Origin: Escherichia coli
Lineage (GTDB): Bacteria; Pseudomonadota; Gammaproteobacteria; Enterobacterales; Enterobacteriaceae
DNA length: 64,000 bases
Assembly (NCBI RefSeq): GCF_003790525.1
Contig: NZ_CP033635.1
Direction: 5' to 3' (one strand)
Part shown: positions 8,096 to 32,710 of the stretch, in pieces
Layout of the letters: each line of letters starts with the position of its first letter
Numbering within the stretch: the stretch's first letter is position 1
The notes under the pieces: generated by a model
What the model was told of the DNA's origin: nothing
Databases searched by the model: none
Seen by the model: the letters and a program-made list of their open reading frames with translations, nothing else
Made by a program: the position numbers and the translations under genes

Positions 8096-8108
8096 TTTAG
8101 AACAGGGG

Positions 8109-8678: not shown

Positions 8679-9426
8679 AATATTATCGGTTATACTAATT
8701 AAGTTAAAAAATAAACTATAAATACCAGAGCCTGGTATTATTGCTTGTTTTTTATAAGCAAATAATGAGCTGGGGTTTAAATTATGCCACTAAATGGATA
8801 TTCATCAATACCCCGCCAGAGAGATAGTTGCCCAGCGGGCATAGATCATTATTAGTCAACCAATGAGCATAAATAAGCACAAGGAGGTGTGTATTGCGAA
8901 TAGTAATTCAATGACATGCTGGTGGTTTTTTTGTGGTGAAAATATTTGTACCTTTTTGTTTACGGATGAAAAATAAACAGTCATATTATTTTGGTTAATT
9001 GTTGTGTTAGTTTTAACACTCGGTGATGTTTTTTGTTATAGTGCATTAATTTTTAAATAAAAAAATTCATACATTCATGGATGTAATATATACAAGATAC
9101 AATGTTAATTTTAGATAAAATATTAATTGCATTGGATACTTTTTAAATATGCCGATGTTGAGCTTAATTTTATGAGGGAATACTATTTCGGGTTGTAGGA
9201 CTTTTTTATAATCATCTTATAGGGCTCTTTATATTTACAGGAGGGTTTTGAACGATAGTTACATAACGAAGGTTGTTTATATGCGTTTACAAGCGATTAA
9301 TTAGATTAGGTGAATTTTAATAAATTAATCTATAATCATACAGCAACTATATGAATTATATTATTGACTAAATGTAATTCTTTCATCATAGTTGACATGG
9401 TTATTTTATATAAATAGAGGTGATTT

Positions 9427-10056
9427 ATGCAAAACAGAAAATTTTTAACGCATCATGAAATTAATTTACTACTTCAATCTGTAAGACAAAAGAGTTGCTC
9501 TTCACGCGATGTTTGCATGATTTTATTGGCTTATTTTCATGGTCTGCGTGTTAGTGAGCTCTTATCTCTGCAGTTGTCGGATTTAGAACTAACTACAGAA
9601 AAAATATATATTCAACGGATAAAAAATGGATTCAGTACAGTCCATCCACTTCAAAAGGAAGAGGTGATTGCAATAACAAACTGGCTGAATGAAAGGAATT
9701 CATTAAATGTTAAACATTTCAATGATAACCCGTGGTTATTTGTTTCCCGAACAGGAAAACCATTATCGAGACAACGATTTTATAACATAGTTTCTGCTGC
9801 GGGTAAAAATGCAGGTTTAAATATTAAAGTTCATCCACATATGTTACGCCATGCATGTGGTTATTCACTAGCAGATAATGGTGTGGATACCCGTCTTATT
9901 CAGGACTATCTCGGGCATCGTAATATCAGGCATACGGTAATTTATACTGCTTCTAATTCAATGAGATTTGAAAAAATGTGGGGGAGAGGTGACGCAAAAA
10001 AGCAACATTTTGACCCAAAATGTAAACCCAATCTTTGTTTAGAAATTCTCGTATAG
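9427..10056 (+). CDS. ipuA: FimB/FimE-family tyrosine recombinase whose 3' end overlaps the left inverted repeat of the switch
   Basis: The 209-aa ORF has the same catalytic motifs (HGLRVSEL, HPHMLRHACG, GHRNIRHTVIYT). The 7-bp IRL at 10011-10017 lies inside its last 15 codons. Confidence 0.75.
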   Translation: MQNRKFLTHHEINLLLQSVRQKSCSSRDVCMILLAYFHGLRVSELLSLQLSDLELTTEKIYIQRIKNGFSTVHPLQKEEVIAITNWLNERNSLNVKHFNDNPWLFVSRTGKPLSRQRFYNIVSAAGKNAGLNIKVHPHMLRHACGYSLADNGVDTRLIQDYLGHRNIRHTVIYTASNSMRFEKMWGRGDAKKQHFDPKCKPNLCLEILV

Positions 10057-11018: not shown

Positions 11019-14000
11019 ATGAATAAGATATATAAAGTCATTTGGAACCATACAACCCAAAAATGGGATGTTGTTTCAGAATTGACGAGTTGTAGAAAAA
11101 AATGTAAATCAACTCGCTTAGGAATTGCTTTATCAGCAATGGTTCTGGGGGGCGCTATTGCAATTAATTGCAATAACGCAATGGCAGATGTCATATTGTC
11201 ACCAGACTGGCGTCCGGGTACGAATAACTCGGGTGTTGGGGCTGCAACAGTAAGTGGTAAAACCGAATACATCACTGGTCCAAATGTCGTCCAGTCTGGT
11301 GGGTCAGGTCTTATCTGGATGACTGTAGAACAGGCAATTTTAAATGGTTACACCACTGGAGATAATTTATCCGGATTGATTTACGTCAATACCGGAGAAA
11401 AAACAAAAACCATTACAGTGAAGGATGAGGTTACTGGCGCTTATCAAACACTTCAAGTGTTTGATACTGACTCTTTCTCACAACGCGATGCGGGGACTGG
11501 AGGAAATGAAACCATTCCTGGTTTTAGTGGCACTGCAGATTTTTTCAATGCGACACGTTTTGTAACAGCCAATAATGGCGGTACAGCTATTTTGGATGTG
11601 GGTTCACCAGCAATCGGTAATTTTTTTAAAAATACACAGCTTGCTGTAGCTGATGGAGAAGGTTCCTCTGTTGTATGGAACTCGGTCAATGATTTTTATT
11701 TTCAGCCTGGTGCAACCATGCAGGGGGGCGGCGTTACTCAAAAAATCATTGACTCAATGAAATATGCTGGAACAATTACTGATTGGGCGGGAAAAGTACA
11801 CCATATTAACTCTCTTGATGATTTAAAGCAATATAATCAATATTTGATAAAGTCACTAGAGGACAAAACGCTTTCTTATAAGCAGTATGATGCTGAATTT
11901 AATAAGGCCCTTATTGTCACCAAGCATAATTACAATGTGGATATGACCGCTGGGGGACGTATAGACTCAACTCCTTACAAAGAAAATGTAGGGCTGCTTG
12001 CTGTTCTCCATGCAACCAATAACGCACGAGCAATATTAGGTAAAACGGGTAAATTAACTGGAGTTCTTCCTGCCTATGGGAATGGAGGAGGGATCGTTGC
12101 AACTAATGGTGGGACCGGTGTTAATGAAGGGGTCATTGATGCCATTGGTACTGAAATGATTGCCTATCAAGACAGTACCATTGTTAACGATGGTACACTT
12201 TTTGTTTGGGATAATAATGATAAATATGCTCTCCAGGCAGAGGGGATGGTTGCCGGTAGTAATGGTTCTTCAGCCATTAATAATGGTGTTATTAATATTC
12301 GCCCATTTAAAAATGCTTTCGCTCCAGAGGGGATTAACACCGCAATTGTTGTTAGTAATGGGGGCATGGCAACAAATAAAGGCACAATAAATATTACTGC
12401 CGATGCATCAACTAATGATAATAATGGCAAAACACGAGGTGTAAATGTTGGAGCTGGAGGCTCTTTTATTAACTCGGCCTTCGGGAGCATCAATGTAGGT
12501 ATTGCGGAGGATAAAACTGCGACTCATTCGGCTGTGGGTTCTGTTGCGATTGAAGTACAAAATGGTGCAAACAAAGTCGTTAATGAAGGTACTATTTTTT
12601 TGGGCAGGGGGGCTCAGGGGAACTACGGAATCCTGGCAAAGGATGCCGGGAGTGTTGATGTGGTAAATAAAGGGACTATCACTATTGACGGTTATGACAG
12701 TGATGCACCTGCACTGAATGTTGGCATGCTGGCAAATAATAGCTCCGGGATGAAAAACTCCGGGATTATCAATGTTAATGGTCTGAACAGTACCGGGCTA
12801 CAGGTAATCAATGCAGGGCAATTAAATTCTGACGGTACGATAAATGTTGGCGGCGAGGGTATCAGTAGTGGTTTCCGTAACTATGGTGCCTGGGTGGAAG
12901 GTGCCAGAAGCAATGTTAATGTATCCGGAAAAATCAATCTTTCCGGTACTGGTGCTGTGGGGGTTTTTGCCAAAGATGGCGGCAGTCTTACCTTGTCAGG
13001 CAATGGTGCAGTGCTATTTGGCAGCAGCGATCAGATAGGCTTTTATGTCTATGGAAAGGACTCTGCCATTCATAATACCGGAAGCGGTGTTATGGATGTG
13101 TCCACTGAAAACTCAACATTATTCCGTATTGCCAGCGGTGCGACATTCCAGGGAACTGCAGATGCTTCTTCTGCACTTACGGCGTCTGGTAAGAACTCTT
13201 ATGCACTTATTGCCACGGGGAAATCGGATGGCGGTGTGGCCTCGACAGTAACGTCTGGAGGAATGACCATCAACCTGACGGGGGAGGGGGCTACAGCGAC
13301 TTTAATTGAAGGGGGAGCGCAGGGCACAATTGAAAGTAATGCCATTATCAATATGGATAATGCCAGTGCAATAGCCGGTATTGCGGATGGCAATGGCTAT
13401 GATATTTCCGGCAAACTCATTAATCCGAAGGACAAGACCACACTATTAACGGCGGGGGCTCAGTTAAGTTCCACCCAGGATAAAGTGACCGGGTATATCG
13501 CCCGTAATGGGGCCACTCTAAATAATACCGGTAATATCATCTTTACTGGAAAGAATACAGTGGGCGTCCGGGTTGAGGAGGGTGCTGTTGGTACCAACAG
13601 CGGAAATATTACAGTTCAGGATGGTGGTGTGGGACTAATTGCTAATGCCACACAAGATGTTACAACGATTAATAACTCGGGAAATCTCGTTCTCAAGGGG
13701 GGAGATAATGCTAACCGTACAACGGGTATAAAAGCATCTGGTACAACAACAACGGTTAATATGACCGCGGGTACTATATCTTTGCAGGGACAGGGGGCGA
13801 TTGGCGTTGAGGCCAGCAATAAAGGGACTGTTAACCTTGATGGCTCGGCAGTACCGAACTTTGCTTCTGACGGCTCTGGTATTACCGATCAGATTGCTTT
13901 TCGTATTATCGGAGATGGTGCAACCATTAAGACGAATATTGCACCGGGAACTCTGCTGGATGCCAGTGGGGAACGTTCTGTACTTTTCCGTATTGAAGAT

Positions 14001-17000
14001 GGGGCAAAACAGGCCGGCTCTTTGCTGATGAAAACCTCCGGGACAGGCAGCCGTGGTATCTGGGCCACAGGGAAAGGGAGCAATGTCCTGGCTGATGCTG
14101 GCAGTGATTTCCAGATCCTGGGCGCTCAGGCTCAGGGATTATATGTAACTGGTGGTGCGACAGCGACGCTGAAACAGGGGGCATCAGTTAACCTTGTAGG
14201 GGATGGCGCTGTTGTCGCGGAAGTTGACGGAAATGAATACGCTCTGGATGGCAGTATTACACAAACGAATACTGGCTCGGTTATTACCAATGAGGCAGAT
14301 ATCTCTTCGCCGCTGAATAATGCCAAGGGCTTTATTACGCGTAATCAGGGACTGTTGATTAACAGCGGCAACATTGATTTCACTACCGGTACAGATAATA
14401 TCGGCGTCTGGGTTGATAATGGTCGTTTTGAAAATACAGGAAGCCGTATAGCGGTCAATGGCGTTGCATTATTTGTTGAAGGTGAACACGCTCAGATTAC
14501 CAGCACGGGAGGGGATATCGTCGCTGTGGATGGTGAGGCTGCCATTAAGCTGGGGGCGGGCGCGTCACTGAACCTGGCAGGGAGTGGCCTGGGAACGATC
14601 GAAGGTCAGAAAAATGCGCATGGCATCCTGCTGGATACAGGGGCTGTGGGGCTGGTTATTGATGGTGCGAAAATCAATGTTAATGCTGCAGGTGCGGTCG
14701 GTCACGGGATTGAGAACCGTGCAGAAATTGAAGGCATTCAGTTAACCAATACGACTGAAATTAATGTGGCTGATGGCATTGGTGTGCGAACTTCTGCTTC
14801 TCTGGCCAAGACCAACAGCGGCACTATTAATGTAGACGGCAGTGGAATTGCACTGGCGTTCCAGAAAGCTGACGGAAGTGAAACCGATAATAACCTGGAT
14901 ATGTCTGACTCCGGCGGATTAGTCATTAATCTGAAAGGCACGGGCGGCACGGGTATTTTCGCCAACACTAAAGATGGTGCTGTCGTGAAGAGTGGTGCAA
15001 GTGTCAATGTTACACAGGCCGATGGCGGTTCCGCTCTGGTGGTTAACAATGCGGCCAGTGAAGTGGTTCAGAGCGGTAATCTCATCTCTGCTTCTCTGAG
15101 TCATGCCGTAGTGGATGCTTCAAAAGCACAGTCCTTTACCAATAAAGGTCAGATTAAAGCTGCGTCCGCCACCGGGACTGCAATGGCGTTTGATGACGCC
15201 GTGAATACCACCGTACTGAATGACAGCGGTGCTGAAATTCAGGGGGTTGTGGCTCTGAACGGCGGTGATAACACATTCACCAATAAAGGCAGTATTACCG
15301 GAACCGTCAGTGCAAAAGAGGGTAACAATACATTTTTATTTGATGATGGCAGCATACTGACAGGAGAAGTGGCTGCAGGAAATGGCAATAACAATGTAAC
15401 GCTCAATGGTAAGGCTCATGTTGATAAGGTTACTGCCGGTACCGGGAAGAACACCTTCACCATTAAAGGCGAAGGGGCAACCTGGAACCTGCTGGATGGC
15501 GGGCAGGGAGATTCTGATTCCCTGATTTTTGATAACGCCATTCATACGCTGGATTCTGCTGTAAAACTACGGAATTTTGAACATGTCGGGCTGAAGAACA
15601 GTTCGCTTGTCACTCTGAAGGAAGCTCTTGTGCTGACCGATGGGGGGACCGGCCCGGGTTCCGTCGATATTGAATCGGGCAGCGAACTGGCCATTATTCC
15701 CGCAGTTGCAGGCAACTTTACCTTTGATCCACTGTTAACAGGCAAAGGAACACTGTCTGCCCGTCTTGATGCCGACACATCTGCTTTTGAATTCAGCCAT
15801 AACGTCGGGGATCAATTTGCCGGAACTCTGAAGCTGGGTACCAGTAGCTTTGCTCTGGAAGGGCTGAATACGAGCGGGTTAACCCATGCAATGCTGATGT
15901 CTGAAACCGGGAATATCACAACGGTTGGCTCCGGTGTTCAGCAGATTGGCGGTCTTGGGTTCAATGGCGGAACGCTGATTTTTGGTTCCGTTATGCCGGG
16001 CGATACCATTGCCAGCAACAGTATTGAAACCTCTGCTGCAGGTACGCTGGATATCCGGGGGAAAGGCACAATTCAGGTCACCATGCCAGATGAAGTGATT
16101 AATGATATTCCGGCTGTTGATACCCGTAAGAATTTGCTGGAGCAGGATGATGCGCAGACCCTGGTCACACTGGTGAATGCAGCGGGTACCGTCACCGGTA
16201 CTGGCGGGCAACTGCAACTGGTGGATGAAAACGGGCAGGCTATTTCTCACAGTCAGACGTTTGATGTCACTCAGGGCGGTGAAGTTGTAGCTCAGGGAAA
16301 TTATGACTATAAGCTGCTGGGAAGCTCCGACGGTGTTAAAGGTGACGGACTGTACATAGGCTATGGGCTGAAGTCGCTGGATTTACAGGGAACCGGTGAT
16401 AAAGCGCTGGTGCTGACACCGAGAGCGAATGCCCAGGGACTGCAGACAGATCTTGGTGCACAGTTAACGGGGGCAGGGGATCTGGCCATCGAAGCTGCGG
16501 GGCAGGTTGTCACACTGTCTAACGGCGGTAATAACTACACCGGGGATACGCTGGTGCGCAGCGGCACACTGCAGATGGCAAATGATAATGTGCTTGGCGC
16601 TACAGGTAGCCTGAACGTTGCCAGCAATGCCGTCTTCAGAACAGACGGATACAGCCAGACGGTGGGTGCACTGCAGACAGAAACGGGAGCGCACATTCAG
16701 CTTGATAGCGGTAGTGTACTCACGGTCAGCGGCACGCAGCGTCAGCCGGGCGATGATAATGGTGGCATCATTGAAAACAATGTGCTGACCGGAGACGGTA
16801 CGCTGGCTGTCACGGGCAGCAATCTGACGGTACATGGCACCAATATCGGGTTCACCGGTAATGTCAGCCTTACCCGGGGTTCGCTGGTTGAAATGAACGG
16901 CGCACAGGGGCTGGGAAGCCAGGGCTCCATCAGCTTTGAAAGCCTTAATGATCGCCTGGCGATTGATATCGCCGACGGTAGCGGAGTCAGCAGTAACCTG

Positions 17001-18932
17001 AGTAAATCGCTTTCCGGAAAAGGTTCAGTGGGCATACTGAACACCACTGATCTGACACTTTCCGGAGATAACCGTAATTTCAGCGGTGAATTCCGTGTGC
17101 AGAAAGATGCTGCTCTGCGGGCTTCAGATGAAAAACACCTGGGCACCGGGCTGATTGACAGTGATGGTGTCACCTGGCTTACCGCCAGTGGAAACTGGTT
17201 ACTGAAGAATGATATTACTGGCTCCGGCGCTCTGGTGAAACAGGGGGCGGGTAATCTGATCATTAATCATGAGCTGACTTATACCGGTGATACCACGGTT
17301 GAGAATGGCGTTCTGATTGTCGGTGATGATTCAGTCACCCGTGCCGCTGGCGCGACGTTGTCAGGATCCAAAAACATTCATGTTCTTAATGGCGGCACAC
17401 TGAGTGGGCTGGGGACCGTTTCGGGTCAGGTTAATAACCAGGGAACACTGGCATCACTGAATGCTCTCTCAGGTTATGAAACGGCAGAGGCGGGCAATTT
17501 TACCGTTGGCTCACTGACCAATACCGGCGTCATTCGTCTGGCCGGTGGTAAGACAGGAAATACCCTGACCGTAAATGGCGATTACACTGGTGGCGGTACG
17601 TTAATTATCAATACCGTGCTGGGGGATGATACTTCTGCCACTGACAAACTGATTGTCACGGGTAACACCTCCGGTGATACCGGCGTGGTGGTGAATAATG
17701 TCCGGGGCCAGGGGGCTCAGACCGCTGACGGCATTGAGATTGTGCATGTCGGTGGGCAGTCTGACGGTAACTTCAGACTGCAGAACCGTGCGGTGGCAGG
17801 GGCATGGGAATATTTCCTGCATAAAGGTAATGCGGGTGGTACTGACGGTAACTGGTATCTGCGTTCTGAATTGCCGCCAGAACCACAACCGCAGCCGCAG
17901 CCACAACCGCAGCCACAGCCACACCCCACGCCGGATAAACCTGTACAGAAGGTCTATCGTCCGGAAGCGGGCTCTTATATTGCGAACATAGCGGCAGCCA
18001 ACACGCTGTTCAACATCAGAATGCACGATCGTGAGGGGGAAACTTACTATACCGATGTGTTTACTGGTGAGAAGAAAGCAACAAGTATGTGGATGCGTCA
18101 TATCGGCGGTCATAATCGCTGGAAGGACAGCAGTTCACAGCTGAATACGCAAAGTAACCGTTATGTTGTGCAACTGGGTGGCAGCATTGCGCAATGGACT
18201 GACGGTCAGGACCGTCTGCAACTGGGGATTATGGCCGGTTATGGAAATGAGAAGAGTTCCACGACATCCTCGCTTTCGGGATATAAATCTAAAGGTGCGA
18301 TCAATGGATACAGCACCGGTTTATACGGAACGTGGCAGCAGAATGACGGTAATGACAACGGGGCTTATGTCGATACCTGGATCCAGTACGGATGGTTTAA
18401 TAATACCGTTAATGGTGAAAAACTGGCTGCGGAGTCCTGGAAATCCCGTGGATTTACCGGTTCAGTGGAAGCGGGTTATACCTTTAAAGCCGGCGAATTT
18501 ACCGGTAGCCAGGGTAGTCACTATGACTGGTATATTCAGCCGCAGTCCCAGATCACGTGGATGAATGTAAGAGCCAGTGAGCATACGGAGAAGAATGGCA
18601 CGAAAGTTCAGCTCAGCGGAGACGGTAATATCCAGAGTCGTCTGGGCGTCAGAACTTACCTGAAAGGTAAGAGTGCGTCTGATGATAATAAGGCGCATCA
18701 GTTCGAGCCATTTGTGGAAGTTAACTGGATCCATAATACACGGAGCTGGGGTGTCAAAATGGATAATACGGCACTCAGTCAGGACGGAGCTACAAATATT
18801 GCTGAAGTCAAAACGGGTGTTCAGGGTAAATTGTCAGATAACCTGAATGTCTGGGGCAATGTTGGTGTTCAGGCTGGCGATAAAGGGTACAGTGATGCCC
18901 AGGCAATGCTGGGTATTAAATATATATTCTAA
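11019..18932 (+). CDS. upaE: giant AIDA-I-type (type Va) autotransporter adhesin
   Basis: The 2637-aa ORF starts with an ESPR-type extended signal peptide (MNKIYKVIWNHTTQKWDVVSELT). A long Gly/Asn/Thr-rich beta-helical passenger follows, then a PQ linker and a C-terminal beta-barrel ending in KYIF. The symbol follows the ipuR-linked locus of CFT073. Confidence 0.85.
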   Translation: MNKIYKVIWNHTTQKWDVVSELTSCRKKCKSTRLGIALSAMVLGGAIAINCNNAMADVILSPDWRPGTNNSGVGAATVSGKTEYITGPNVVQSGGSGLIWMTVEQAILNGYTTGDNLSGLIYVNTGEKTKTITVKDEVTGAYQTLQVFDTDSFSQRDAGTGGNETIPGFSGTADFFNATRFVTANNGGTAILDVGSPAIGNFFKNTQLAVADGEGSSVVWNSVNDFYFQPGATMQGGGVTQKIIDSMKYAGTITDWAGKVHHINSLDDLKQYNQYLIKSLEDKTLSYKQYDAEFNKALIVTKHNYNVDMTAGGRIDSTPYKENVGLLAVLHATNNARAILGKTGKLTGVLPAYGNGGGIVATNGGTGVNEGVIDAIGTEMIAYQDSTIVNDGTLFVWDNNDKYALQAEGMVAGSNGSSAINNGVINIRPFKNAFAPEGINTAIVVSNGGMATNKGTINITADASTNDNNGKTRGVNVGAGGSFINSAFGSINVGIAEDKTATHSAVGSVAIEVQNGANKVVNEGTIFLGRGAQGNYGILAKDAGSVDVVNKGTITIDGYDSDAPALNVGMLANNSSGMKNSGIINVNGLNSTGLQVINAGQLNSDGTINVGGEGISSGFRNYGAWVEGARSNVNVSGKINLSGTGAVGVFAKDGGSLTLSGNGAVLFGSSDQIGFYVYGKDSAIHNTGSGVMDVSTENSTLFRIASGATFQGTADASSALTASGKNSYALIATGKSDGGVASTVTSGGMTINLTGEGATATLIEGGAQGTIESNAIINMDNASAIAGIADGNGYDISGKLINPKDKTTLLTAGAQLSSTQDKVTGYIARNGATLNNTGNIIFTGKNTVGVRVEEGAVGTNSGNITVQDGGVGLIANATQDVTTINNSGNLVLKGGDNANRTTGIKASGTTTTVNMTAGTISLQGQGAIGVEASNKGTVNLDGSAVPNFASDGSGITDQIAFRIIGDGATIKTNIAPGTLLDASGERSVLFRIEDGAKQAGSLLMKTSGTGSRGIWATGKGSNVLADAGSDFQILGAQAQGLYVTGGATATLKQGASVNLVGDGAVVAEVDGNEYALDGSITQTNTGSVITNEADISSPLNNAKGFITRNQGLLINSGNIDFTTGTDNIGVWVDNGRFENTGSRIAVNGVALFVEGEHAQITSTGGDIVAVDGEAAIKLGAGASLNLAGSGLGTIEGQKNAHGILLDTGAVGLVIDGAKINVNAAGAVGHGIENRAEIEGIQLTNTTEINVADGIGVRTSASLAKTNSGTINVDGSGIALAFQKADGSETDNNLDMSDSGGLVINLKGTGGTGIFANTKDGAVVKSGASVNVTQADGGSALVVNNAASEVVQSGNLISASLSHAVVDASKAQSFTNKGQIKAASATGTAMAFDDAVNTTVLNDSGAEIQGVVALNGGDNTFTNKGSITGTVSAKEGNNTFLFDDGSILTGEVAAGNGNNNVTLNGKAHVDKVTAGTGKNTFTIKGEGATWNLLDGGQGDSDSLIFDNAIHTLDSAVKLRNFEHVGLKNSSLVTLKEALVLTDGGTGPGSVDIESGSELAIIPAVAGNFTFDPLLTGKGTLSARLDADTSAFEFSHNVGDQFAGTLKLGTSSFALEGLNTSGLTHAMLMSETGNITTVGSGVQQIGGLGFNGGTLIFGSVMPGDTIASNSIETSAAGTLDIRGKGTIQVTMPDEVINDIPAVDTRKNLLEQDDAQTLVTLVNAAGTVTGTGGQLQLVDENGQAISHSQTFDVTQGGEVVAQGNYDYKLLGSSDGVKGDGLYIGYGLKSLDLQGTGDKALVLTPRANAQGLQTDLGAQLTGAGDLAIEAAGQVVTLSNGGNNYTGDTLVRSGTLQMANDNVLGATGSLNVASNAVFRTDGYSQTVGALQTETGAHIQLDSGSVLTVSGTQRQPGDDNGGIIENNVLTGDGTLAVTGSNLTVHGTNIGFTGNVSLTRGSLVEMNGAQGLGSQGSISFESLNDRLAIDIADGSGVSSNLSKSLSGKGSVGILNTTDLTLSGDNRNFSGEFRVQKDAALRASDEKHLGTGLIDSDGVTWLTASGNWLLKNDITGSGALVKQGAGNLIINHELTYTGDTTVENGVLIVGDDSVTRAAGATLSGSKNIHVLNGGTLSGLGTVSGQVNNQGTLASLNALSGYETAEAGNFTVGSLTNTGVIRLAGGKTGNTLTVNGDYTGGGTLIINTVLGDDTSATDKLIVTGNTSGDTGVVVNNVRGQGAQTADGIEIVHVGGQSDGNFRLQNRAVAGAWEYFLHKGNAGGTDGNWYLRSELPPEPQPQPQPQPQPQPHPTPDKPVQKVYRPEAGSYIANIAAANTLFNIRMHDREGETYYTDVFTGEKKATSMWMRHIGGHNRWKDSSSQLNTQSNRYVVQLGGSIAQWTDGQDRLQLGIMAGYGNEKSSTTSSLSGYKSKGAINGYSTGLYGTWQQNDGNDNGAYVDTWIQYGWFNNTVNGEKLAAESWKSRGFTGSVEAGYTFKAGEFTGSQGSHYDWYIQPQSQITWMNVRASEHTEKNGTKVQLSGDGNIQSRLGVRTYLKGKSASDDNKAHQFEPFVEVNWIHNTRSWGVKMDNTALSQDGATNIAEVKTGVQGKLSDNLNVWGNVGVQAGDKGYSDAQAMLGIKYIF
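17874..17933 (+). repeat. CCNCAR dinucleotide-codon repeat encoding the (PQ)n linker PPEPQPQPQPQPQPQPHPTP
   Basis: The repeat ccacaaccgcagccgcagccacaaccgcagccacagcc is read directly. It lies between passenger and barrel, as in AIDA-like autotransporters. Confidence 0.9.
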
Positions 18933-20819: not shown

Positions 20820-22091
20820 CTATTCTTTCCAGTCAATCCCATCCAGTAAGCACCCTGCCTCATATTGCCCAACAACCCAGTCAAGATTGCAGGACTCATA
20901 GAAAGCGAGGCGATTATACTGTGGCTCGTTTTTTACCAGACCACGAACGGAGCCGCGTTGCCAGTACAGGCACAGATTGGCAAGAGGTGTGATCAGCACA
21001 GCATTGTCCGGGAAAAATGGAACGGTCACAGCCGGAAGATTCCCCAGCACGGGCTTTTTAATGATTTCCTCGTTAAGCAAAATTTCCTGATTCATCTGCG
21101 ATGGATCAAGACGGTTTATCAAAGGCCATTGTTTACGGACCAGAGTATTGTGACTGCATACGGCCACAATGCCTTCCTGCCACTGTTCATCAATCATGGA
21201 TTGCCAGGCATCCAGAACAAGTGCATCTATTGTATGGTGTGTACCGCGTGTATTGCTTGTCGGCGATGAAACAGAAAGACCGCTGATAACCCTTCCCGCT
21301 GCTTCGTTTCGAAACTTCTGCAACCATCCGACGCCGCAATCGTCACGGCCCGGATATGTTTCAGGATCAGATTGATCGGCATAGTGTGTGCCGTTAAAAC
21401 CAATCTGAATTAAATCCAGCCATTTCCGGCGTTCAAAAGCGGCACGGGCGCTTCCTTCAAGACCATTTGCGGACGCGTGAGCATCGACATTGTCGTAGCT
21501 CAACGCAAAATCAAAATTAACCTGCTCGCAGCGGTAGCCTCTTGAAACCAGTGAATGCGCCTGTAGTGGCGAACGGCGCTCGTGAGGTGGCGATGTACGT
21601 GCCAACGGCCGGGAAGCGTCTACCAGCACAACCTGACCTGATATATCCGTAACAGGCACGGGGGTTATTTCAGCAAGGAAATTTGCCTGCCATCCACTGG
21701 CAAGCGTTGCACTCTGGCGGGGAACGGGTTCAACTTCTGACGAATAGCGCGCAGTATCACCGGAAAAGTGCAAATCCTTCGGATGCTTTCCGGTTATCGA
21801 CTCGATAGCGCAATTGAAAACCATCTGAGACTGTTGATTTCGTTGTGATACAACATAATCAGCAGTGCAATTATAACACTCAATGCCGTCGTTATTACCC
21901 CCACCGCTTGCAGTATGCAGGGTGTGAAGCTCAAGCTCACGCTCCAGTTTTTGATATTCATTGTCCAGCGCGCGACGCGTCTCATCGCTTATGCTTGCTG
22001 TGTTTGCTTTCAGGCGATTCCGGGACATTAACTCCCTGAGTCGGCTCACTATATCAGCGCCGTGCAAATGTGAAATATTCAGACCGCCCAT
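20820..22091 (-). CDS. P2 GpN-family major capsid protein homolog with a ~95-aa N-terminal extension (possible fused scaffold domain)
   Basis: The protein is collinear with recalled P2 GpN. CEQVNFDF aligns with CDQINFDF, GWLQKFRNEA with GWLQKYRNEA, GNLPAVTVPFFPDNAVLITPLANL with GNLPAVRVPYFPADAMLITKLENL, and YESCNLDWVVGQYEAGCL with YESMNIDYVVEDYAAGCL. The start was chosen at the TAATG overlap with the upstream gene (MGGLNISH) rather than the ORF-track start at 22232. Confidence 0.8.
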   Translation of the reverse strand: MGGLNISHLHGADIVSRLRELMSRNRLKANTASISDETRRALDNEYQKLERELELHTLHTASGGGNNDGIECYNCTADYVVSQRNQQSQMVFNCAIESITGKHPKDLHFSGDTARYSSEVEPVPRQSATLASGWQANFLAEITPVPVTDISGQVVLVDASRPLARTSPPHERRSPLQAHSLVSRGYRCEQVNFDFALSYDNVDAHASANGLEGSARAAFERRKWLDLIQIGFNGTHYADQSDPETYPGRDDCGVGWLQKFRNEAAGRVISGLSVSSPTSNTRGTHHTIDALVLDAWQSMIDEQWQEGIVAVCSHNTLVRKQWPLINRLDPSQMNQEILLNEEIIKKPVLGNLPAVTVPFFPDNAVLITPLANLCLYWQRGSVRGLVKNEPQYNRLAFYESCNLDWVVGQYEAGCLLDGIDWKE

Positions 22092-22801
22092 TACTGCCAC
22101 CCCCGGCAGAGTTCTCTGCCCTCCGCAAGGTCGCGCATTTTTTCTGGATTCTGTCGCGCCGCGCTCCATTGTACAGGTGAAGGGGCGTTCCTGATTGCGT
22201 GGCTTACCGAATCCGGCAGTTTCTCCGGGCAATAACGAAGCGGATTGGAGGCATCGCTCTCAATATCGTTAATCCGGCCGCGAATCAGCCCGACACTTTC
22301 AACAATATCTGCCATTTTCAGTGTTTCACATATTTTCTTTTCTGCGTTATACAGCGGCTGGCCAAGCAGCTCACATAAACCACGAATCAATAGCAGAGCA
22401 GGGGTCAGCTCGTTAATCAGTCCGGGAAGTGCTTTTGCAAATATCTCTGCCCGCAACTTATTATCAATGCTTTGGTAAGCACAGCCAGCCTCTGCCGCGT
22501 TATAACGACACTCCAGTAACCTGATGCGCGCCTCATCATGCAATACCCGCAGACGCTCAAGATTTTCTCGCGCCACACCCGCCTGAATGCATAATTTTGC
22601 GGAGGCTTCCGTTTTTGCGCCCAGCGCAGACAGGATTGAGTTCTGCCAGTCACGTTCGAGAGACTCCAGCTCCCCTTTCGTCTGTTCGATAGTCGCTTCC
22701 AGATTGGTGATTAATGATTCCTGTTCGCTGAGTTTTGCCATGGCCGTATCAAACTGTGCTTTACATGCCTGATGCCTGGCGCTTGCCTGAGTTATATCCA
22801 T
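22091..22801 (-). CDS. coiled-coil protein, possibly Sid/Psu-like capsid size-determination or decoration factor
   Basis: The 236-aa ORF is predicted helical, with a heptad-rich N-terminus (AKLSEQESLITNLEATIEQTKGELESLERDW). Its size and position (after Ogr/Delta, before the capsid gene) resemble the P4 sid/psu module. An AGGAG RBS is present. Homology is not verified. Confidence 0.45.
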   Translation of the reverse strand: MDITQASARHQACKAQFDTAMAKLSEQESLITNLEATIEQTKGELESLERDWQNSILSALGAKTEASAKLCIQAGVARENLERLRVLHDEARIRLLECRYNAAEAGCAYQSIDNKLRAEIFAKALPGLINELTPALLLIRGLCELLGQPLYNAEKKICETLKMADIVESVGLIRGRINDIESDASNPLRYCPEKLPDSVSHAIRNAPSPVQWSAARQNPEKMRDLAEGRELCRGWQ

Positions 22802-23249: not shown

Positions 23250-23432
23250 CTATGAAGTTTTCAACTTCCTGCGCTTAGTGATGCGTACAAACGACTCAAG
23301 CGTACAAAAACAAGCCCCACACTCAATATTACTGCACTGGTAATACGTTTTGTAGATGTTTTGTTCGTGCTCTTCCAACGAACGACTACGGGTTCGGGCT
23401 GAAGCGCCACAGGCCGGGCAAGGGAAAGACAT
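23250..23432 (-). CDS. Ogr/Delta-family zinc-finger late-gene transcriptional activator
   Basis: The 60-aa ORF has CPACG...CSNIECGACF, four Cys with the Ogr/Delta spacing. A GAGGAG RBS is present. Confidence 0.8.
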   Translation of the reverse strand: MSFPCPACGASARTRSRSLEEHEQNIYKTYYQCSNIECGACFCTLESFVRITKRRKLKTS

Positions 23433-23793
23433 ATCACGCTCCTCTTACTGGTGTGAAATTTGACCTATTATATCTCCTGCCGCCCCCTCTGGCTGTATCA
23501 AATAAACCCGCAGCAGTCGCCGCGTATTACGGACGGACGCACCGTTCCCATGCTCACTCGTCACATTCCCCGTATCAGTTCTCTCTTACCGTAAGAACGG
23601 CTCTGGCTGGCGATAAAACTAACCCGGTCGGGCATTCCCGCAGTCTTTAGAGAAAATGTAATTTACCCCCTGAAACGTGGGCTGTTCCCCCGTCACCTGC
23701 GCGCGAAAAACTCACCGTTTTTTGTGCACGCACGAAATCGCCCTCCGGGTGCGCCAGTACTGGGCCGGATGGGCAAAAAGTTACTCTAAAAAA

Positions 23794-23820
23794 TTGTGCA
23801 AATTTGTGCACTTTTGTGCA
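23794..23820. repeat. three helically phased direct repeats of TTGTGCA (exact 10-bp period)
   Basis: ttgtgca occurs at 23794, 23804 and 23814 in non-coding DNA between the iteron field and ogr. Confidence 0.85.
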
Positions 23821-24046
23821 GATGAACAATAGCGTGAAAAAGAGTGCTTTTGAGAGATTTTTTATGGCAACTGCGCCGCGTGTATTACGTTTTTTACCAT
23901 CCCCGCCGCGCATGTACATACTTCATTTTTCTGCCAGACAACAGGGCAACTCCCCGTGACTGACAGCCCCAAAAAATCAATGATTGATGTTGCATTTTTG
24001 TTAAAGGTTAGACCAGTTGTTTTAGGGCTCTGCCTCATAATCCGGT

Positions 24047-24360
24047 GGGGGGTGCGCAAAGCGGTTACAACGGTTACAACACTCAAAAACACCACTTAAC
24101 AGCATGATTTTAATGGATATTGTTTGTAACCGCTTTGCGGTTACACTGCGGTTACAACGGTTACAGGTTTCAAAAAGCACTTTATTATCAATCAATTAAA
24201 AACTTAACCTGTAACCGCCTGTAACCTAACAAAACGGTTACATGTAACCGCGTTGTAACCGCTTTTATAACTCATCGGACCAGTTATAATATATTGATAT
24301 ATAATACAAAAATAAGTAATTTTAAATTTGTAACCGTTGTAACCGCTTTGCGCACCCCCC
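24047..24360. repeat. iteron field (candidate replication origin): 13 copies of GGTTACA/TGTAACC enclosed by 33-bp perfect inverted repeats, with an AT-rich tract
   Basis: The left arm ggggggtgcgcaaagcggttacaacggttacaa (24047-24079) is the exact reverse complement of 24328-24360. The heptamer occurs in both orientations throughout. The AT-rich stretch lies at about 24280-24327. Confidence 0.7.
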
Positions 24361-24611
24361 CCCAAACTTTAGCGCGACCCTTTAAAATGTTAATTAAACT
24401 CACTTACTCTGTATCTCTCTCGTTAACTCTCTGTTATTGAAATGTATCTCTCCACTGTTTCACTCTTTCTGATAATCAGGGGAAGCAAAAAATTGATGGC
24501 GGCACTACTGCAATATGGCCACCATTGCATTGCTGTTACCGTTGGTTCTGGCCAACAAAAAAGGTCAGCGGGAAACTGACCTCTTTTGCTGTGAATGCGG
24601 CGTTCTGCGGG

Positions 24612-25618: not shown

Positions 25619-28288
25619 TTAACTCCCCTCCTTGTAACTGAATATCCGGCATTTCAGTACTTCCGGCTCTCTGGCCTCGGCGACCCCTCTTCCGGCGTTT
25701 GCCTGTCTGGAGACCTCACTACGAATGGTTTTGCGGCCTGTCAAAGGTCGGGAACGTCCGGCTGCGAGCAACTCAATCATTTCGCGGTCAGTTCGGATCT
25801 CCACGCGGTGAATAGCGGCAGCCTGTGCCAGTTGCGGAATACTGATAGCAATCCCCTCGCGGCATCCCTTGCCGTAGTGGTTTACACCGTATTTTGTTAT
25901 GCCGTCCAGATAGTCGAACGCCTCCCAGAACGCTATTACTTCCGGCAAGTCATCCGTTACCGCTTTAACTTGTTCCGCTGCCATTCGTTCCAGTTCCTGG
26001 CATGTGGCATTAAGCCATTCATCCGGGATATCAATAACGCATTTCAGCGCCCTGACCAGCGCAATAAGTTGCGCGTGATTTTTGGCAATACGGGGATGGA
26101 GAATATTTTCGCAACCGCAAAGGCGGGTCGTTTCAGGCTCTGAGAGCGCCAGAAACATTTCCATAATTGCCCGTTCACGGCTGACTGCCCGATGAATAAA
26201 CCCTGACACCTTCTCAACGGGGTAGAGTTCCAGTCGTCTCGCCGCCAGCCGGGTATCAGACGAGTGGCGCTTTTTATCGGTATATATGCGAATCAGTCGC
26301 TCAATAATTGCAAGTGAGGCGTTTACCCTGGCATTCTGTGCAATCACGATAGCGCCCTTAAAATCCGGGTCATAGGTGTTGTTATTGTTGGTCTTAACGC
26401 CACGAACGCCGATACCGCCGCCGTTATAGAGGCTTTTCAGGTTATCGAAGTCAAACGCACCTCTTTTTTGCGCATTGCCTCCCCTGTCTGCTTCAATCAG
26501 AACAACAGGTAATCCGGCGACCTGTCCAAAGGTGCGCTTCCAGCCCGCCTCTGATCCTTTGGTTGGATCAACGCCTTCATAGTTGTCACGACCGCACAAC
26601 CGCCAGCAAAAATCAATCAATGTTGATTTACCCGTTCCGGGCTCCCCGGTGACTTCAAGGAAGGGGAAGGATTCTTCTTTATCCCGGATTTGTTCGCTGA
26701 ACAGGGAGCCCAACCAGAAAGCCAGGGTAATAATTCCTTTTTCACCAAAAGCCAGCCAGAGATCTTCCACCCAGGACTCTGTAAACTCATCCGGTTTTTT
26801 GTAGTTAATCTGTAATGTGGGTTTTTCGCTTAATGGTTTTGCGTTTATGCCATCAATTTCAAAATAATCTTCGTCATTGATTTCATAAGTTTTTCCCTTG
26901 TAAACAGCAATATCATTAAACAGCCATGCCCCAATCGCCTTGTTGTATCCGATAAAATCCTGACCAATAACCTCTTTTATTGCGGGAAGGTCATTTTTTA
27001 TTAATGCGTCAAGGTGCGCAGTTGTTCCGGTATAAATGCCGCCTTTTGCCACATGCAACAGGCGTTTTTTAAATTCAGATGCGGATGTCAATTGTCCTGA
27101 TGTAAAGGTGTTTTTCACCGTAGCACCATCCGGGAACGTAACACGGAAGTAATACCATGCTTCATCCGTGTCATTATTTCTAATGTAATAAAGCGGCGCT
27201 GGGTTACAGTTTGCGATTTCTTTTACTGCGCCAGATTCCTTAAGTGCAATTTTGCGCGCTTCATCCTCATCAACACTTCTCTCATTCTTGGCACGCTCTA
27301 CAGCTTTCATATAGCGCTCAATGTCCAGTTTGAACCAGAAAACACGGTTATCAAAAGTAAAATGAAATTCCTTCCGCTCACGAAAGGAAAATATTATTAG
27401 CGCCTTATCTCTCGGAGATTTCGCCAGCAATAAATCACCGTAATGACGGTATCTTTTCACATCATGGCCACGCAGCTTTCCGGCGATGTGTAAATCATTC
27501 CAGTCGCGTTTATTGTTGTTTTTACCTGGCAACGCCGCTGCCGTTCTCCAGCCGTCTTCGGCGCTGCGTTCTGCATGTTTTTTCGCGTAACGCTCACCCG
27601 CACGCCCGTTATCCAGCGCCCACACAATAACCGGACGGGGATTATCCCCGCACAGCTTCGCCAGCTCTTCCAGCGCCTTATCAGGGTAGTTCACGGCAGA
27701 CATGACAGAAACGGCCGCAATGCCATTCTGGTTAAGGCTGATGGCATCAAAGATGCCCTCACAAATCCAGATTTCTTTGGCCTTGCTTAAATCTGCTCCC
27801 GGATAAGCCCACCACAACCCCTTGTAGCTGCCGGAAAAATTCGCCTTGCGCGCGAAGCGTCCCGGTCGGTCTATGATGCGCTCCCACCACACGCCGTCAG
27901 CCAGCGTAAAACGCACAGTAGCGGCCTGTTCGCCGTTTTCCTTGTCCTGGTATCGCTCCTGAGTAAATGCGCCCTTCAGTGGCCCCACAGCAATATTGCG
28001 CGCCTCCTGAAGATAAGCTGCCACCGCTGCATATGGCTCGTCTTTCGTGCTGATATAACGATCTGACCATGATGAAAACACATCCGGGTAAAGTTCTTTG
28101 GTCAGCAGGTCTGTACCGCATTTATTTTCGCGCCCACAGTGTACGATGTACGGCCTTTCAAGGCTGGTAAACAACTCTTTCTTTCCACATTGCGGACAAA
28201 CACCATACCGGAGGTAGTTATTTTCTTCTTTGAAGTTGTAATCACGGATAAGACGGTTAATAATCTCTTTTCTGATGTCAGATTTCAT
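25619..28288 (-). CDS. P4 alpha-like primase-helicase (Zn finger, Toprim and SF3-type P-loop NTPase)
   Basis: The features are CPQCGKKELF...HCGRENKCG (zinc finger), WICEGIFDAISL (Toprim) and VTGEPGTGKST (Walker A). The start was chosen at MKSDIRKE (28288), which has a GGTGGAG RBS. Confidence 0.85.
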   Translation of the reverse strand: MKSDIRKEIINRLIRDYNFKEENNYLRYGVCPQCGKKELFTSLERPYIVHCGRENKCGTDLLTKELYPDVFSSWSDRYISTKDEPYAAVAAYLQEARNIAVGPLKGAFTQERYQDKENGEQAATVRFTLADGVWWERIIDRPGRFARKANFSGSYKGLWWAYPGADLSKAKEIWICEGIFDAISLNQNGIAAVSVMSAVNYPDKALEELAKLCGDNPRPVIVWALDNGRAGERYAKKHAERSAEDGWRTAAALPGKNNNKRDWNDLHIAGKLRGHDVKRYRHYGDLLLAKSPRDKALIIFSFRERKEFHFTFDNRVFWFKLDIERYMKAVERAKNERSVDEDEARKIALKESGAVKEIANCNPAPLYYIRNNDTDEAWYYFRVTFPDGATVKNTFTSGQLTSASEFKKRLLHVAKGGIYTGTTAHLDALIKNDLPAIKEVIGQDFIGYNKAIGAWLFNDIAVYKGKTYEINDEDYFEIDGINAKPLSEKPTLQINYKKPDEFTESWVEDLWLAFGEKGIITLAFWLGSLFSEQIRDKEESFPFLEVTGEPGTGKSTLIDFCWRLCGRDNYEGVDPTKGSEAGWKRTFGQVAGLPVVLIEADRGGNAQKRGAFDFDNLKSLYNGGGIGVRGVKTNNNNTYDPDFKGAIVIAQNARVNASLAIIERLIRIYTDKKRHSSDTRLAARRLELYPVEKVSGFIHRAVSRERAIMEMFLALSEPETTRLCGCENILHPRIAKNHAQLIALVRALKCVIDIPDEWLNATCQELERMAAEQVKAVTDDLPEVIAFWEAFDYLDGITKYGVNHYGKGCREGIAISIPQLAQAAAIHRVEIRTDREMIELLAAGRSRPLTGRKTIRSEVSRQANAGRGVAEAREPEVLKCRIFSYKEGS

Positions 28289-29106: not shown

Positions 29107-29289
29107 TTACCCCTCCATGATTTTTACTGCGCATTTGTGGGTTAATCGCCCCTGTTTGTCATTGCGGGAATATGCCATACGACAGGTATCACGCCATGCA
29201 TCGTCATAAGTCGGATATTCCCGGGAATGAATCATCTGGCGAACGTCGCCGTTCTGGTAGTTAATCAGGGTGATAAGGAGCTTAAACAT
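29107..29289 (-). CDS. hypothetical protein (satellite early operon)
   Basis: The 60-aa ORF starts at MFKLLITL. Its ATG overlaps the upstream stop (ATGTTTAA). The longer 145-aa ORF-track version was rejected. Confidence 0.45.
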   Translation of the reverse strand: MFKLLITLINYQNGDVRQMIHSREYPTYDDAWRDTCRMAYSRNDKQGRLTHKCAVKIMEG

Positions 29290-29809
29290 GGCACGCCTCC
29301 CGGACACGGATACGGGCAACAAAGACCAGACGGGATGCCGGAAGCAGGGCGCGCGCTTCGCGCTCACTGGCAGCGGTAACGGTATGAAGGCGGATATTTT
29401 TACCGTGGCACTGCATAAAGCGCCAGATAAAATCAGGGCGTGTTGATATAGCCATTTTGGCGGCTCCTTGATTAAGTTTACGGAGTCTCGCCAGCACGCT
29501 GTCAAACATGGTGGCGGGACGTAACAGGGTTGACAGACTGGCAATCAAGGAACCAGCGAGCGCAAAGGCTCCCCCATTACGCCCCGCCATAATACGGGGT
29601 AGGGTGGAATTACGGGCACAAAAAAACCGCATTACGGAAATATAGCGGCTACCCGCTTGATTGTTCAGGCTGTCAAACCCGGCACCCGCTTTATGAGGTG
29701 CGGGCAAACGATACGCCATGACAAAAAAGCGAGTCAAGCAATATTGCAAATTATTTTTGCGCAATTGCGCTGAGTGATTGATTTTTAAGAGTAAAAAAGT
29801 CATAATCAT
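29282..29809 (-). CDS. Ash-family / Icd-like (cell-division-inhibitor-like) protein, possibly a fusion or with a later start
   Basis: The middle segment (AGAGFDSLNNQAGSRYISVM...RIMAGRNGGAFALAGS) resembles Ash-family proteins of P4-like islands. The C-terminus (FIWRFMQCHGKNIRLHTVTAASEREARALLPASRLVFVARI) resembles Icd-like proteins. Confidence 0.55.
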   Translation of the reverse strand: MIMTFLLLKINHSAQLRKNNLQYCLTRFFVMAYRLPAPHKAGAGFDSLNNQAGSRYISVMRFFCARNSTLPRIMAGRNGGAFALAGSLIASLSTLLRPATMFDSVLARLRKLNQGAAKMAISTRPDFIWRFMQCHGKNIRLHTVTAASEREARALLPASRLVFVARIRVREACHV

Positions 29810-30362: not shown

Positions 30363-30584
30363 TTAAGCCTGAAAACGTTGTTGTTTTCTTTCTTCTATCC
30401 AGTCGATAATTTCCTCTTCAACCCATGCAACCGCGCGAGGGCCTATTTTTATTGGTTTGGGGAATATATCAGATTTTATATCTTCGTAAATTCGAGCTCT
30501 TGATCTCCCTGTGATTTCAATGACTCTGGGGAGTCTTATTAATTTTTGAATCCGCCTTTCGCTGGTCTGTGAGTATGCTGACAT
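30363..30584 (-). CDS. alpA: AlpA/Vis-family phage transcriptional regulator or excisionase (MerR-like HTH)
   Basis: The 73-aa ORF contains LIRLPRVIEITGRSRARIYEDIKSDIFPKPIKIGPRAVAWVEEEIIDWI, the AlpA signature. Confidence 0.85.
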   Translation of the reverse strand: MSAYSQTSERRIQKLIRLPRVIEITGRSRARIYEDIKSDIFPKPIKIGPRAVAWVEEEIIDWIEERKQQRFQA

Positions 30585-31194: not shown

Positions 31195-32457
31195 TCAGTC
31201 TGTTTCGTTAGTCCATTTAAAATCATAGGGGGAAATATATGCCGCCTTGCAGGTGTCGAGATAATCAGCCCACCATTGCAACATTCGGCGGCGTTCCTGC
31301 ATATGTTCAGCTCTGTGAACGTATGCAGCCCGGACACTGCCTCTTTCCCTGTGACTCATCTGAAGCTCAACGGCTTCTCTTGTCCACCTGCCTGACTCTG
31401 TCAGCGCCGAACAGGCCATGGTCCTGAATCCGTGACCACAAATATCTTTTTTTGTGTCGTATCCCATGTGGCGTAATGCCTTGTTAATGGTGTTTTCGCT
31501 CATTGGTTTTATCTGGTAATGGTCGCTGGGGAAAATAAACACTTCATCACCGGATATATTTCTTATATCGTCAAGAAGCTGCATGGCCTGAGTGGGTAAA
31601 GGGATGGCGTGAGGGGTTCCCATTTTCGTTCCACGATATGAATATTTTACGCCTTCTATTTTTTCGCGTTCTGCTGGTATTACCCACATTGATTTATCAA
31701 AGTCAATTTCATTCCAACGAGCAAAACGCAATTCACTTGAGCGAATAAAAATTAATAAATTTAATTTTAGTGCAAATTGCGTTAATAACCGTCCATTCAT
31801 CTTATGGTGGTAATCATTTATTTTGCCAAGTAATTCAGGTAATCGCTCAAGGGGAAGAGCGGGGCGATGTTTGGTTTTATTAGTTTCGATTGCACCGTTC
31901 AGTTCCTGCGCTGGATTGTATTTAATCATTCCATTCTGTACAGCGTAGCGCATAATGGCGTTCATTCGCTGCTTGTTACGTGATGCTGTCTCAAGCACTC
32001 CTTTGTCTTCCATTTTGCGTAAAGGAATCAGTAGATCCATGGTTGTGATCTCGTTAATTGGCCTTTTACCAAGAATGGGGAAGATGTGGTTTTCCAGGTC
32101 TTTTAAGACTTTTTGCGCGTGCAATTCGCTCCAGCCCTTTTTCCGGCTGTGCCATTCTCTGGCAACGTCTTCAAAAAGCACTATTTGAGGTTTTGGTGTG
32201 TGCAGTGGGTCAATGCCTTTAGCCAGGCTCGCCAGATATTCATCACGAGCGTTCCTTGCCTGTGCAAGTGTTACGGCAGGATAAATGCCTAAAGCTCGGG
32301 TCGTTTCTTTACCGTTGATAACCTTGCGAAAGCGCCAGTATTTTGAGCCGTTGGGGTGAACATAGAGATACAGGCCTTTCCCGTCACGAAGTTTTTTAAT
32401 TTTATTGTTGTCCTTATCTGGTTTGGCGTTACGTACAGCTATATCAGTCAGTTTCAT
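31195..32457 (-). CDS. P4-type (DUF4102 N-terminal arm-binding domain) tyrosine integrase
   Basis: The ORF has MKLTDIAVRNAKPDKD...GKGLYLYVHPNGSKYWRFR, and C-terminal HGFRTMA and Y in VRAAYVHRAEH. The start at 32457 has a GGAGGA RBS. The gene lies directly downstream of, and co-oriented with, tRNA-Arg. Confidence 0.9.
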   Translation of the reverse strand: MKLTDIAVRNAKPDKDNNKIKKLRDGKGLYLYVHPNGSKYWRFRKVINGKETTRALGIYPAVTLAQARNARDEYLASLAKGIDPLHTPKPQIVLFEDVAREWHSRKKGWSELHAQKVLKDLENHIFPILGKRPINEITTMDLLIPLRKMEDKGVLETASRNKQRMNAIMRYAVQNGMIKYNPAQELNGAIETNKTKHRPALPLERLPELLGKINDYHHKMNGRLLTQFALKLNLLIFIRSSELRFARWNEIDFDKSMWVIPAEREKIEGVKYSYRGTKMGTPHAIPLPTQAMQLLDDIRNISGDEVFIFPSDHYQIKPMSENTINKALRHMGYDTKKDICGHGFRTMACSALTESGRWTREAVELQMSHRERGSVRAAYVHRAEHMQERRRMLQWWADYLDTCKAAYISPYDFKWTNETD

Positions 32458-32635
32458 TATGTTGATCCTCCAGACGGGTACAAATAAAAATCGAACCAAG
32501 CATACCCGCTTTTATACCCATTTTAATATGGGCTTCAGGCAAATTTAACGAGAGAAAATGAGACAATGGGAGATGTTTAACTCATTGAAAGTAAATGGAT
32601 AATGGTTTTTTCTGAGAGGTTGCAAGAAGTTGCGA

Positions 32636-32710
32636 TGGTGTCCCCTGCAGGAATCGAACCTGCAATTAGCCCTTAGGAGGGGCTCGTTATATCCATTTAA
32701 CTAAGAGGAC
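32636..32710 (-). tRNA. argW: tRNA-Arg (anticodon CCU)
   Basis: The reverse complement reads GTCCTCTTAGTTAAATGGATATAACGAGCCCCTCCTAAGGGCTAATTGCAGGTTCGATTCCTGCAGGGGACACCA. It forms a cloverleaf with a CCT anticodon in CTCCTAAGG and an encoded CCA end. Confidence 0.93.

Follow-up and report, generated by a model that had tools for sequence, protein, structure and literature searches.

A mirror-symmetric field of GGTTACA iterons in a P2-satellite-like island of Escherichia coli is a probable replication origin and binding array for the C terminus of a phiCTX-type primase-helicase

The window analyzed here, a stretch of 64,000 nucleotides of an Escherichia coli chromosome, contains a compact field of GGTTACA heptamers that is most probably an iteron-type origin of replication and binding array for the C terminus of the primase-helicase encoded by the surrounding satellite-like island. 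Three arguments, drawn from comparative sequence analysis, lead to this assignment. The field accompanies a single family of primases across genera, with or without a recombinase; the sequence of its repeat co-varies with two residues near the primase C terminus; and it holds the weakest duplex of the window together with sites that match the IHF consensus. The anatomy of the field, its co-occurrence with this family of primases and the co-variation are computational observations. They supply comparative support for the original prediction, which was that an iteron and unwinding-element origin is served by the adjacent primase.

The 33 nucleotides at 24047-24079 are the exact reverse complement of those at 24328-24360, with a spacer of 248 bp, and when one mismatch was allowed the repeat finder extended these arms to 36 nt with 97% identity (24044-24079 and 24328-24363). 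GGTTACA or its complement TGTAACC occurs 18 times in the window. Thirteen of these copies fall within 24063-24344, while the other five are isolated copies in the remaining 63.7 kb, and no second cluster is present in the 64 kb. Dinucleotide shuffles yield a mean of 6.9 copies per window, or about 0.03 expected per 314 bp, to be compared with the 13 copies observed in 282 bp. Neighboring copies with the same orientation start 9-11 bp apart, which is about one helical turn. This recount confirmed the number of heptamers, the perfect arms and the gap between them, all of which had been predicted from the letters of the sequence. Each arm consists of a G-run, the motif GCGCAAAGC and an iteron-NN-iteron doublet, with the other arm as its mirror image, and since 4 of the 13 heptamers sit inside the arms, the long inverted repeat amounts to two iteron doublets plus the G-run/GCGCAAAGC motif. 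Taken together, the heptamers make up two mirror-image halves, each with an outer doublet and an inner cluster (Table 1). Three local palindromes or convergent arrays had also been predicted, and inspection of the inner clusters found them at 24125-24145 (tgtaaccgctttgcggttaca), at 24208-24226 (cctgtaaccgcctgtaacc) and at 24235-24250 (cggttacatgtaaccg), where the head-to-head palindrome cGGTTACATGTAACCg has the same coordinates.

Exact matches to the IHF consensus WATCAANNNNTTR number seven in the 64 kb and two of these are in the field. The first is inside the central AT-rich spacer (24166-24209), and its ATCAA....TTA positions are kept in all six of the aligned E. coli relatives; the second lies within the candidate unwinding element. 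The latter corresponds to the AT-rich tract that had been noticed beside the right arm, and it contains the least stable 40-mer of the window, starting at 24285, with only about 2 of the 64,000 positions being equally unstable. An Rfam search gave no match within the field itself. The conserved stretch that separates the operon terminator from the field has a counterpart in relatives without the recombinase, where a similar TTAATTAA-rich lead-in also precedes the field.

Table 1. Features of the iteron field and of the island that contains it, in window coordinates.
Feature	Position	Strand	Description
P4-type integrase	31195-32499		
AlpA	30363-30584		
Icd-like gene	29282-29809		contains C4 and isrK RNAs
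phiCTX-type primase-helicase, 889 aa	25619-28288	-	N-terminal Cys4 motif, Toprim, Walker A GEPGTGKS, C-terminal domain; proposed initiator
Codons for residues 877-883 (VLKCRIF)	25640-25660	-	last beta-strand of primase C-terminal domain
Internal P2-type tyrosine recombinase, 334 aa	24612-25616	-	Int_N and Phage_integrase; accessory, not tied to the field
Terminator-like hairpin	24553-24591	-	T-runs on both sides; ends the primase-recombinase operon
Conserved non-coding stretch	24364-24552	.	between operon terminator and field
Outer arm, primase-proximal	24328-24363	-	iteron doublet 24329-24335 and 24338-24344, GCTTTGCGCA, C-run
Candidate DNA-unwinding element	24284-24328	.	83-93% A+T; adjoins the right arm
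Second IHF-consensus match	24287-24299	-	within the candidate unwinding element
Inner iteron cluster, proximal	24210-24260	.	24210(-), 24220(-), palindrome 24235-24250, 24254(-)
IHF-consensus match	24186-24198	+	TATCAATCAATTA (consensus WATCAANNNNTTR); inside the central AT-rich spacer
Inner iteron cluster, distal	24125-24165	.	24125(-), 24139(+), 24150(+), 24159(+); spacing 9-11 bp
Outer arm, primase-distal	24044-24079	+	G-run, TGCGCAAAGC, iteron doublet 24063-24069 and 24072-24078; 9-bp spacing
Small 90-aa ORF	23647-23919	-	adjoins the field
ogr/delta-like zinc-finger gene	23250-23432	-	
236-aa ORF	22091-22801	-	no family match
P2 gpN-family major capsid homologue	20820-22232	-	extra N-terminal region of ~130-180 aa

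The field is located inside an island inserted at tRNA-Arg(CCT) (32636-32710), and this host island is P2-satellite-like. In addition to the genes in Table 1, several small ORFs lie between the Icd-like and primase-helicase genes, and the MazEF genes follow beyond the capsid homologue. A gpN-family capsid protein, the 236-aa ORF and an ogr/delta-like protein are found together in an island in which no recognizable sid/psu or P4 alpha was detected, so that the gene set is atypical for a P2 satellite. A query with a P2/P4 cos pattern found no match in the window, which does not imply that a cos site is absent. Rfam matches to the C4 antisense RNA (29507-29594, minus strand, 74.6 bits) and to isrK (29620-29701, minus strand, 50.6 bits) fall in the region of the Icd-like gene, a pairing like that of P1/P7-type immunity modules.

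Among 5,426 complete E. coli genomes, 61-64 carry the field, which is chromosomal in every case. The insertion sites are argW, the interval between hpt and gcd, or a position beside dsdC, and each of the elements examined has its own separate terminal integrase. The median number of places per genome is 1; megablast gave at most 2 and blastn at most 4, and we presume the extra places to be reverse-strand self-matches of the palindromic arms and inner repeats. Strain STEC313 is informative about the nature of the repeats. In this strain the heptamers read GGTCACA at the aligned positions, with 12 GTCACA cores in the field, and the spacers can still be aligned. Such a concerted change from GGTTACA to GGTCACA would be expected for sites that are read by one protein with a shifted specificity. 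E. coli GF60, with 99.2% identity over the field, is the nearest relative of the window. In GF60 an IS21-family element separates the ogr-like gene from the small ORF next to the field (L001:11005-13312), and this element is missing from the window.

A protein search with the 889-aa protein (E<=1e-10) returned 876 cluster representatives; 244 relatives were found in a collection of genome species and at least 589 in a viral collection. Its phage relatives include proteins annotated as "DNA primase" in Escherichia phage ESSI2_ev239 (51%) and those of Ralstonia RSY1-type phages and Pseudomonas phiCTX (41-44%). For comparison, 80 loci were collected from genomes that represent species and a further 80 from viral contigs. 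A field of matching architecture and size (250-282 bp) was present in about 35 of the fetched loci, as well as in the E. coli relatives and in two phage records. The shared layout begins with a G-run, CGGAAA and a doublet, continues through an AT-rich spacer to an inner cluster with a head-to-head palindrome, and is completed by a central spacer, a second inner cluster, another spacer and a mirrored doublet followed by TTTCCG and a C-run. Together with the primase family, the field was found in Kluyvera, Pectobacterium, Samsonia, Providencia, Proteus, Xenorhabdus, Arsenophonus, Klebsiella, Enterobacter, Mycoavidus and Alkalilimnicola, and in phages ESSI2_ev239 and phiCTX. In 10 of 16 lineages a head-to-head palindrome was detected, always on the same side and at a distance of 85-96 bp from the outer doublet nearest the primase. 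In the orientation of the primase gene, the first spacer is the more AT-rich one in 15 of the 16. A G-run followed by CGGAAA (GCGCAAA in the window) is located just outside each outer doublet, at 24044-24062 and 24345-24363 in the window and at the same position in L007, L011, L014, L015, L053, L065 and L087. The conservation of this motif reaches from E. coli to Alkalilimnicola, and Mycoavidus and phiCTX have a weaker form of it; a GC clamp and a priming signal are two possible roles.

The field is not always next to the primase gene. In ESSI2_ev239 and in phiCTX it lies several kb away, beside int/attP, and adjacency is thus not universal. By exact k-mer detection the field was not found in the flanks of most GC-rich relatives (Pseudomonas, Ralstonia, Lysobacter and others), in which, by analogy with phiCTX, it is probably situated beyond int/attP and so outside the flanks that were searched. 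K-mer matches that did appear in GC-rich relatives, for example in L120, were rejected as coding-sequence noise. A tblastn search of plasmids with the primase returned five records, of which at least the two from Pseudomonas (37 and 48 kb) are possibly circular genomes of phiCTX-like phages, and none of the five was a small plasmid showing that the module is self-sufficient.

The sequence of the repeat differs among lineages. GGTTACA is present in E. coli, Kluyvera, Izhakiella, Providencia, Proteus and Mycoavidus, and GGTCACA in STEC313 and in locus L097. Pectobacterium and Samsonia carry CGTTACA/TGTTACA, Xenorhabdus and Providencia rustigianii CGTTACA, Klebsiella indica and Enterobacter CATTACA/TATTACA, and Arsenophonus CCTTACA. 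The repeat is CGTCACA/CATCACA in ESSI2_ev239, GGTGAGA in Alkalilimnicola and GGTAAT in phiCTX. These differences are tracked by two positions in the primase. Residue 879, just before the invariant Cys880, follows bases 1 and 2 of the repeat, with K corresponding to GG (or AG), R to CG, H to CA or TA, and E to CC. Residue 877 follows base 4, with V, I or Q corresponding to T, and T to C, G or A. No columns were chosen beforehand in the scan that compared the repeat with 721 variable alignment columns from 34 distinct primases. For bases 1 and 2, residue 879 was the only one of the 721 columns to reach a normalized mutual information of 1.00, the runner-up having a value of 0.51, in a sample that is phylogenetically structured, with about 5-6 independent switches, and in which the iteron classes were assigned by the analyst. 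Residue 877 was the only column that fully predicted base 4.

Five loci that were fetched after this rule had been set all fitted it. Locus L097, in which the primase ends in ..PETLKCWIF, has GGTCACA, while L093 and L096, with ..PDVLRCWVF, have CGTTACA. L098, with R, also has CGTTACA, and L059, with K and I, has [GA]GT[TA]ACA. The cleanest natural experiment is provided by loci L016 and L014. The two primases are 93-98% identical over residues 1-840, but residue 879 is R in the former and K in the latter, and the fields are made up of CGTTACA and GGTTACA, respectively. Physical linkage of the 3' end of the primase gene to the field was considered as a cause of the co-variation. We judge it unlikely, since no residues other than 877 and 879 follow the repeat across deep divergence and since in phiCTX and ESSI2_ev239 several kb separate the field from the gene. 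The pattern of co-variation indicates that these two C-terminal residues read the repeat.

An AlphaFold (AF2) model of the C-terminal 200 aa, with a pLDDT of 93.7, consists of a helical bundle and a small alpha/beta unit, and residues 877-883 (VLKCRIF) form its final beta-strand. From the general geometry of beta-strands, residues 877 and 879 would face the same side of this strand, about two base pairs apart, and in the model such a placing would fit the reading of base 4 and of bases 1-2. A fold search against solved structures in the PDB gave no significant match for the C-terminal domain and did not recover the origin-binding domain of P4 alpha; the best match, which was not significant, was to the SCCmec Cch helicase (5dgk). 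A stronger proposal is that a single C-terminal beta-strand directly reads the origin repeat by a simple, evolvable code in which the identity of residue 879 determines bases 1-2 and that of residue 877 base 4, so that a switch of this pair and of all ~10-13 repeats would generate mutually orthogonal replicons. We regard this code as a tentative idea that may well prove incorrect. If it holds, switching would decide whether a satellite is fired by the replicase of a co-resident phage or escapes from it, because P2-type helper phages and satellites share this replicase family.

Based on these results, we infer the following mechanism, from the binding of the initiator and the melting of the duplex to helicase loading and priming. 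Positions 24044-24363 would serve the satellite-like island as its vegetative replication origin. The island's own 889-aa primase-helicase would bind the GGTTACA heptamers by means of its C-terminal domain, with the last beta-strand (877-883) lying against the DNA, so that residue 879 would read bases 1-2 and residue 877 base 4. Two bends of the IHF type would help to wrap the ~280-bp region, the helicase would be loaded in both directions at the AT-rich tract, and the Toprim domain would then prime the enzyme's own synthesis.

It was of interest to weigh this proposal against other roles for the field. It might be argued that the primase-helicase does bind the field but that synthesis starts elsewhere, with the field serving as a crr-like enhancer or copy-control element, or as an array for handcuffing and incompatibility. 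Control roles are common for iteron arrays, and in P4 the element that comes directly after the alpha terminator is crr rather than ori, which is the topological position held by the field. However, the field is the sole GGTTACA cluster in the window, the weakest duplex lies inside it, and its mirror-symmetric layout is suited to bidirectional loading. A control array of this kind is therefore, on these grounds, unlikely.

Another possibility is that the field is the target of the adjacent P2-type tyrosine recombinase and serves as an attP-like site, a site for the resolution of dimers or an invertible segment. The original prediction had left room for an invertible segment or an att/dif site, and the arrangement is indeed suggestive, with 33-nt arms 248 bp apart and a recombinase gene that ends 250 bp from the field. 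Long perfect inverted repeats and IHF-consensus sites are typical of att sites too, and the fields of phiCTX and ESSI2_ev239 are near int. Against this, the architecture of the field is unchanged where no recombinase adjoins it. A Pectobacterium island (L011) has a P4-type integrase only and no second recombinase, while a P2-like prophage (L014) has its P2-type Int upstream and the portal gene downstream, with no recombinase in between; in both, the field lies ~180-220 bp after the primase stop. Nor does the repeat depend on which recombinase allele is present. In satellites that are otherwise ~90% identical, the internal recombinase is found in two allelic forms with only 54% identity (23-35% in N-terminal windows). 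Allele A (in the window and in STEC388) and allele B (in TOE17) are both found beside GGTTACA, whereas STEC313 and TOE17, whose B alleles are 90% identical, have GGTCACA and GGTTACA, respectively. The same repeat thus occurs with quite different alleles and different repeats with similar ones, which shows that the repeat does not follow the recombinase. As for inversion, all 61 of 61 E. coli genomes match a query that spans the segment collinearly over at least 80% of its length, so that none is inverted, and the polarity of the field relative to the primase strand is identical in 15 of 16 lineages. The attP reading fares no better, since the field is not split on integration but is intact in islands and prophages integrated at argW, hpt-gcd and dsdC. 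In phiCTX, moreover, the field (L087:13117-13400) adjoins attP and yet is distinct from it, as the core of attP is tRNA-like and has GTTCCCA repeats of its own on either side. We conclude that a role as recombinase target is very improbable. The internal recombinase may have a site of its own nearby.

The field might instead be an operator or a centromere-like array for some other island protein, such as a transcription-factor array or a partition site of the P1 parS kind. P1 parS has heptamer boxes around an IHF site, which the field recalls, and weak promoter-like matches overlap the field. These matches, though, are at the chance level (3 against 2.2 expected), no ParA/ParB-type genes were found among the island genes examined, the ORF that adjoins the field (23647-23919) is not annotated in relatives in which the field is retained, and the perfect co-variation is with the primase. 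An operator or centromere is on balance slightly less probable even than a recombination site. Finally, a MITE-like dispersed repeat, to which the 33-bp perfect terminal inverted repeats and the block length of ~314 bp would be suited, is so improbable that it may be set aside, given that the unit is always chromosomal and inside the same type of island, usually occupies a single place per genome and has no other copy in the window.

Several known systems resemble the proposed origin. The ori/crr arrangement of P4 has short initiator-binding repeats in both orientations, with 9-bp doublets that follow a CGAAAG-like motif, and is placed just past the terminator of a gene for a Zn-finger/Toprim/P-loop primase-helicase, close to attP/int. 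P4 is likewise a satellite of P2-type phages, and the domains of its primase are colinear with those of the 889-aa protein. The original prediction had likened the heptamer to the P4 type I iteron. The iteron sequence it gave, TGTTCACC, is correct, but its resemblance to GGTTACA is weak, and the relationship of the primase to P4 alpha is remote. In alignments of the two proteins, the matches are confined to the Toprim (E 0.004) and Walker A (E 2e-4) stretches, in the same order; a tblastn search of the phage collection (E<=1e-5) returned no P4 record; and the searches detected neither a sequence match nor a fold match between the C-terminal domain described here and the winged-helix origin-binding domain of P4. 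In addition, P4 possesses a separate ori and a duplicated crr in place of a single mirror-symmetric field. These comparisons suggest that the field works like P4 ori/crr, with an initiator that is not a member of the P4 alpha family.

SaPI origins reportedly follow the replication genes, have AT-rich DNA between two groups of short iterons, and show a pairing of iteron and initiator that is specific to each lineage. The field is like these SaPI/PICI origins in its placement just 3' of replication genes (pri-rep), in having iterons on both sides of an AT-rich region and in its lineage-specific pairs, but the initiators belong to an unrelated family (Rep, to which the SCCmec Cch helicase is related) and the hosts and helper phages are different. 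In the origins of SV40 and other polyomaviruses (large T antigen) and of papillomaviruses (E1), inverted pairs of initiator sites place two oppositely directed helicase hexamers beside AT-rich DNA. The head-to-head palindrome and mirrored doublets of the field suggest the same logic, although those viruses infect eukaryotes, and their initiators have other DNA-binding folds and lack an integral Toprim primase. Lastly, attP sites of the Lambda, P2 and phiCTX types share with the field short repeated sites in inverted arms, IHF-consensus sites and a nearby tyrosine recombinase gene; unlike them, the field is independent of the recombinase and stays whole when the element integrates, and the repeats of phiCTX attP are different.

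The phiCTX-type primase-helicase is widespread and yet no described origin for it was found in the literature searched. This search, which covered GGTTACA iterons, phiCTX origins and Peduoviridae iterons and was incomplete in its coverage, returned no account of the origin, its architecture or the specificity residues. An origin of ~280 bp and a two-residue rule would offer a direct handle for tests of replication and mutual exclusion among P2-type phages and their satellites, and would permit origins to be annotated automatically. Together they might also supply a set of orthogonal small replicons for engineering.

Some further observations concern the neighborhood of the field and its relatives. 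Four copies of TTGTGCA are present within 110 bp (23720-23826; ttttgtgcac ... ttgtgcaaatttgtgcacttttgtgcag), inside the small ORF at 23647-23919 on the minus strand, and these may constitute another protein-binding array. Beside the island, a 2,637-aa ORF (11019-18932, plus strand) corresponds to UpaE, a phase-variable autotransporter adhesin, in the annotation of GF60. In Providencia, prophages that encode a primase with R879 carry their cognate CGTTACA field and a second, adjacent field of GGTTACA repeats (L016:9026-9290 and 9420-9673; L093:7775-8025 and 8012-8278). The right outer doublet of the second field in L016 is a hybrid (TGTAACG gt TGTAACC), and in L093 only remnants of the second field are present. 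These tandem fields may be intermediates of a switch in origin specificity.
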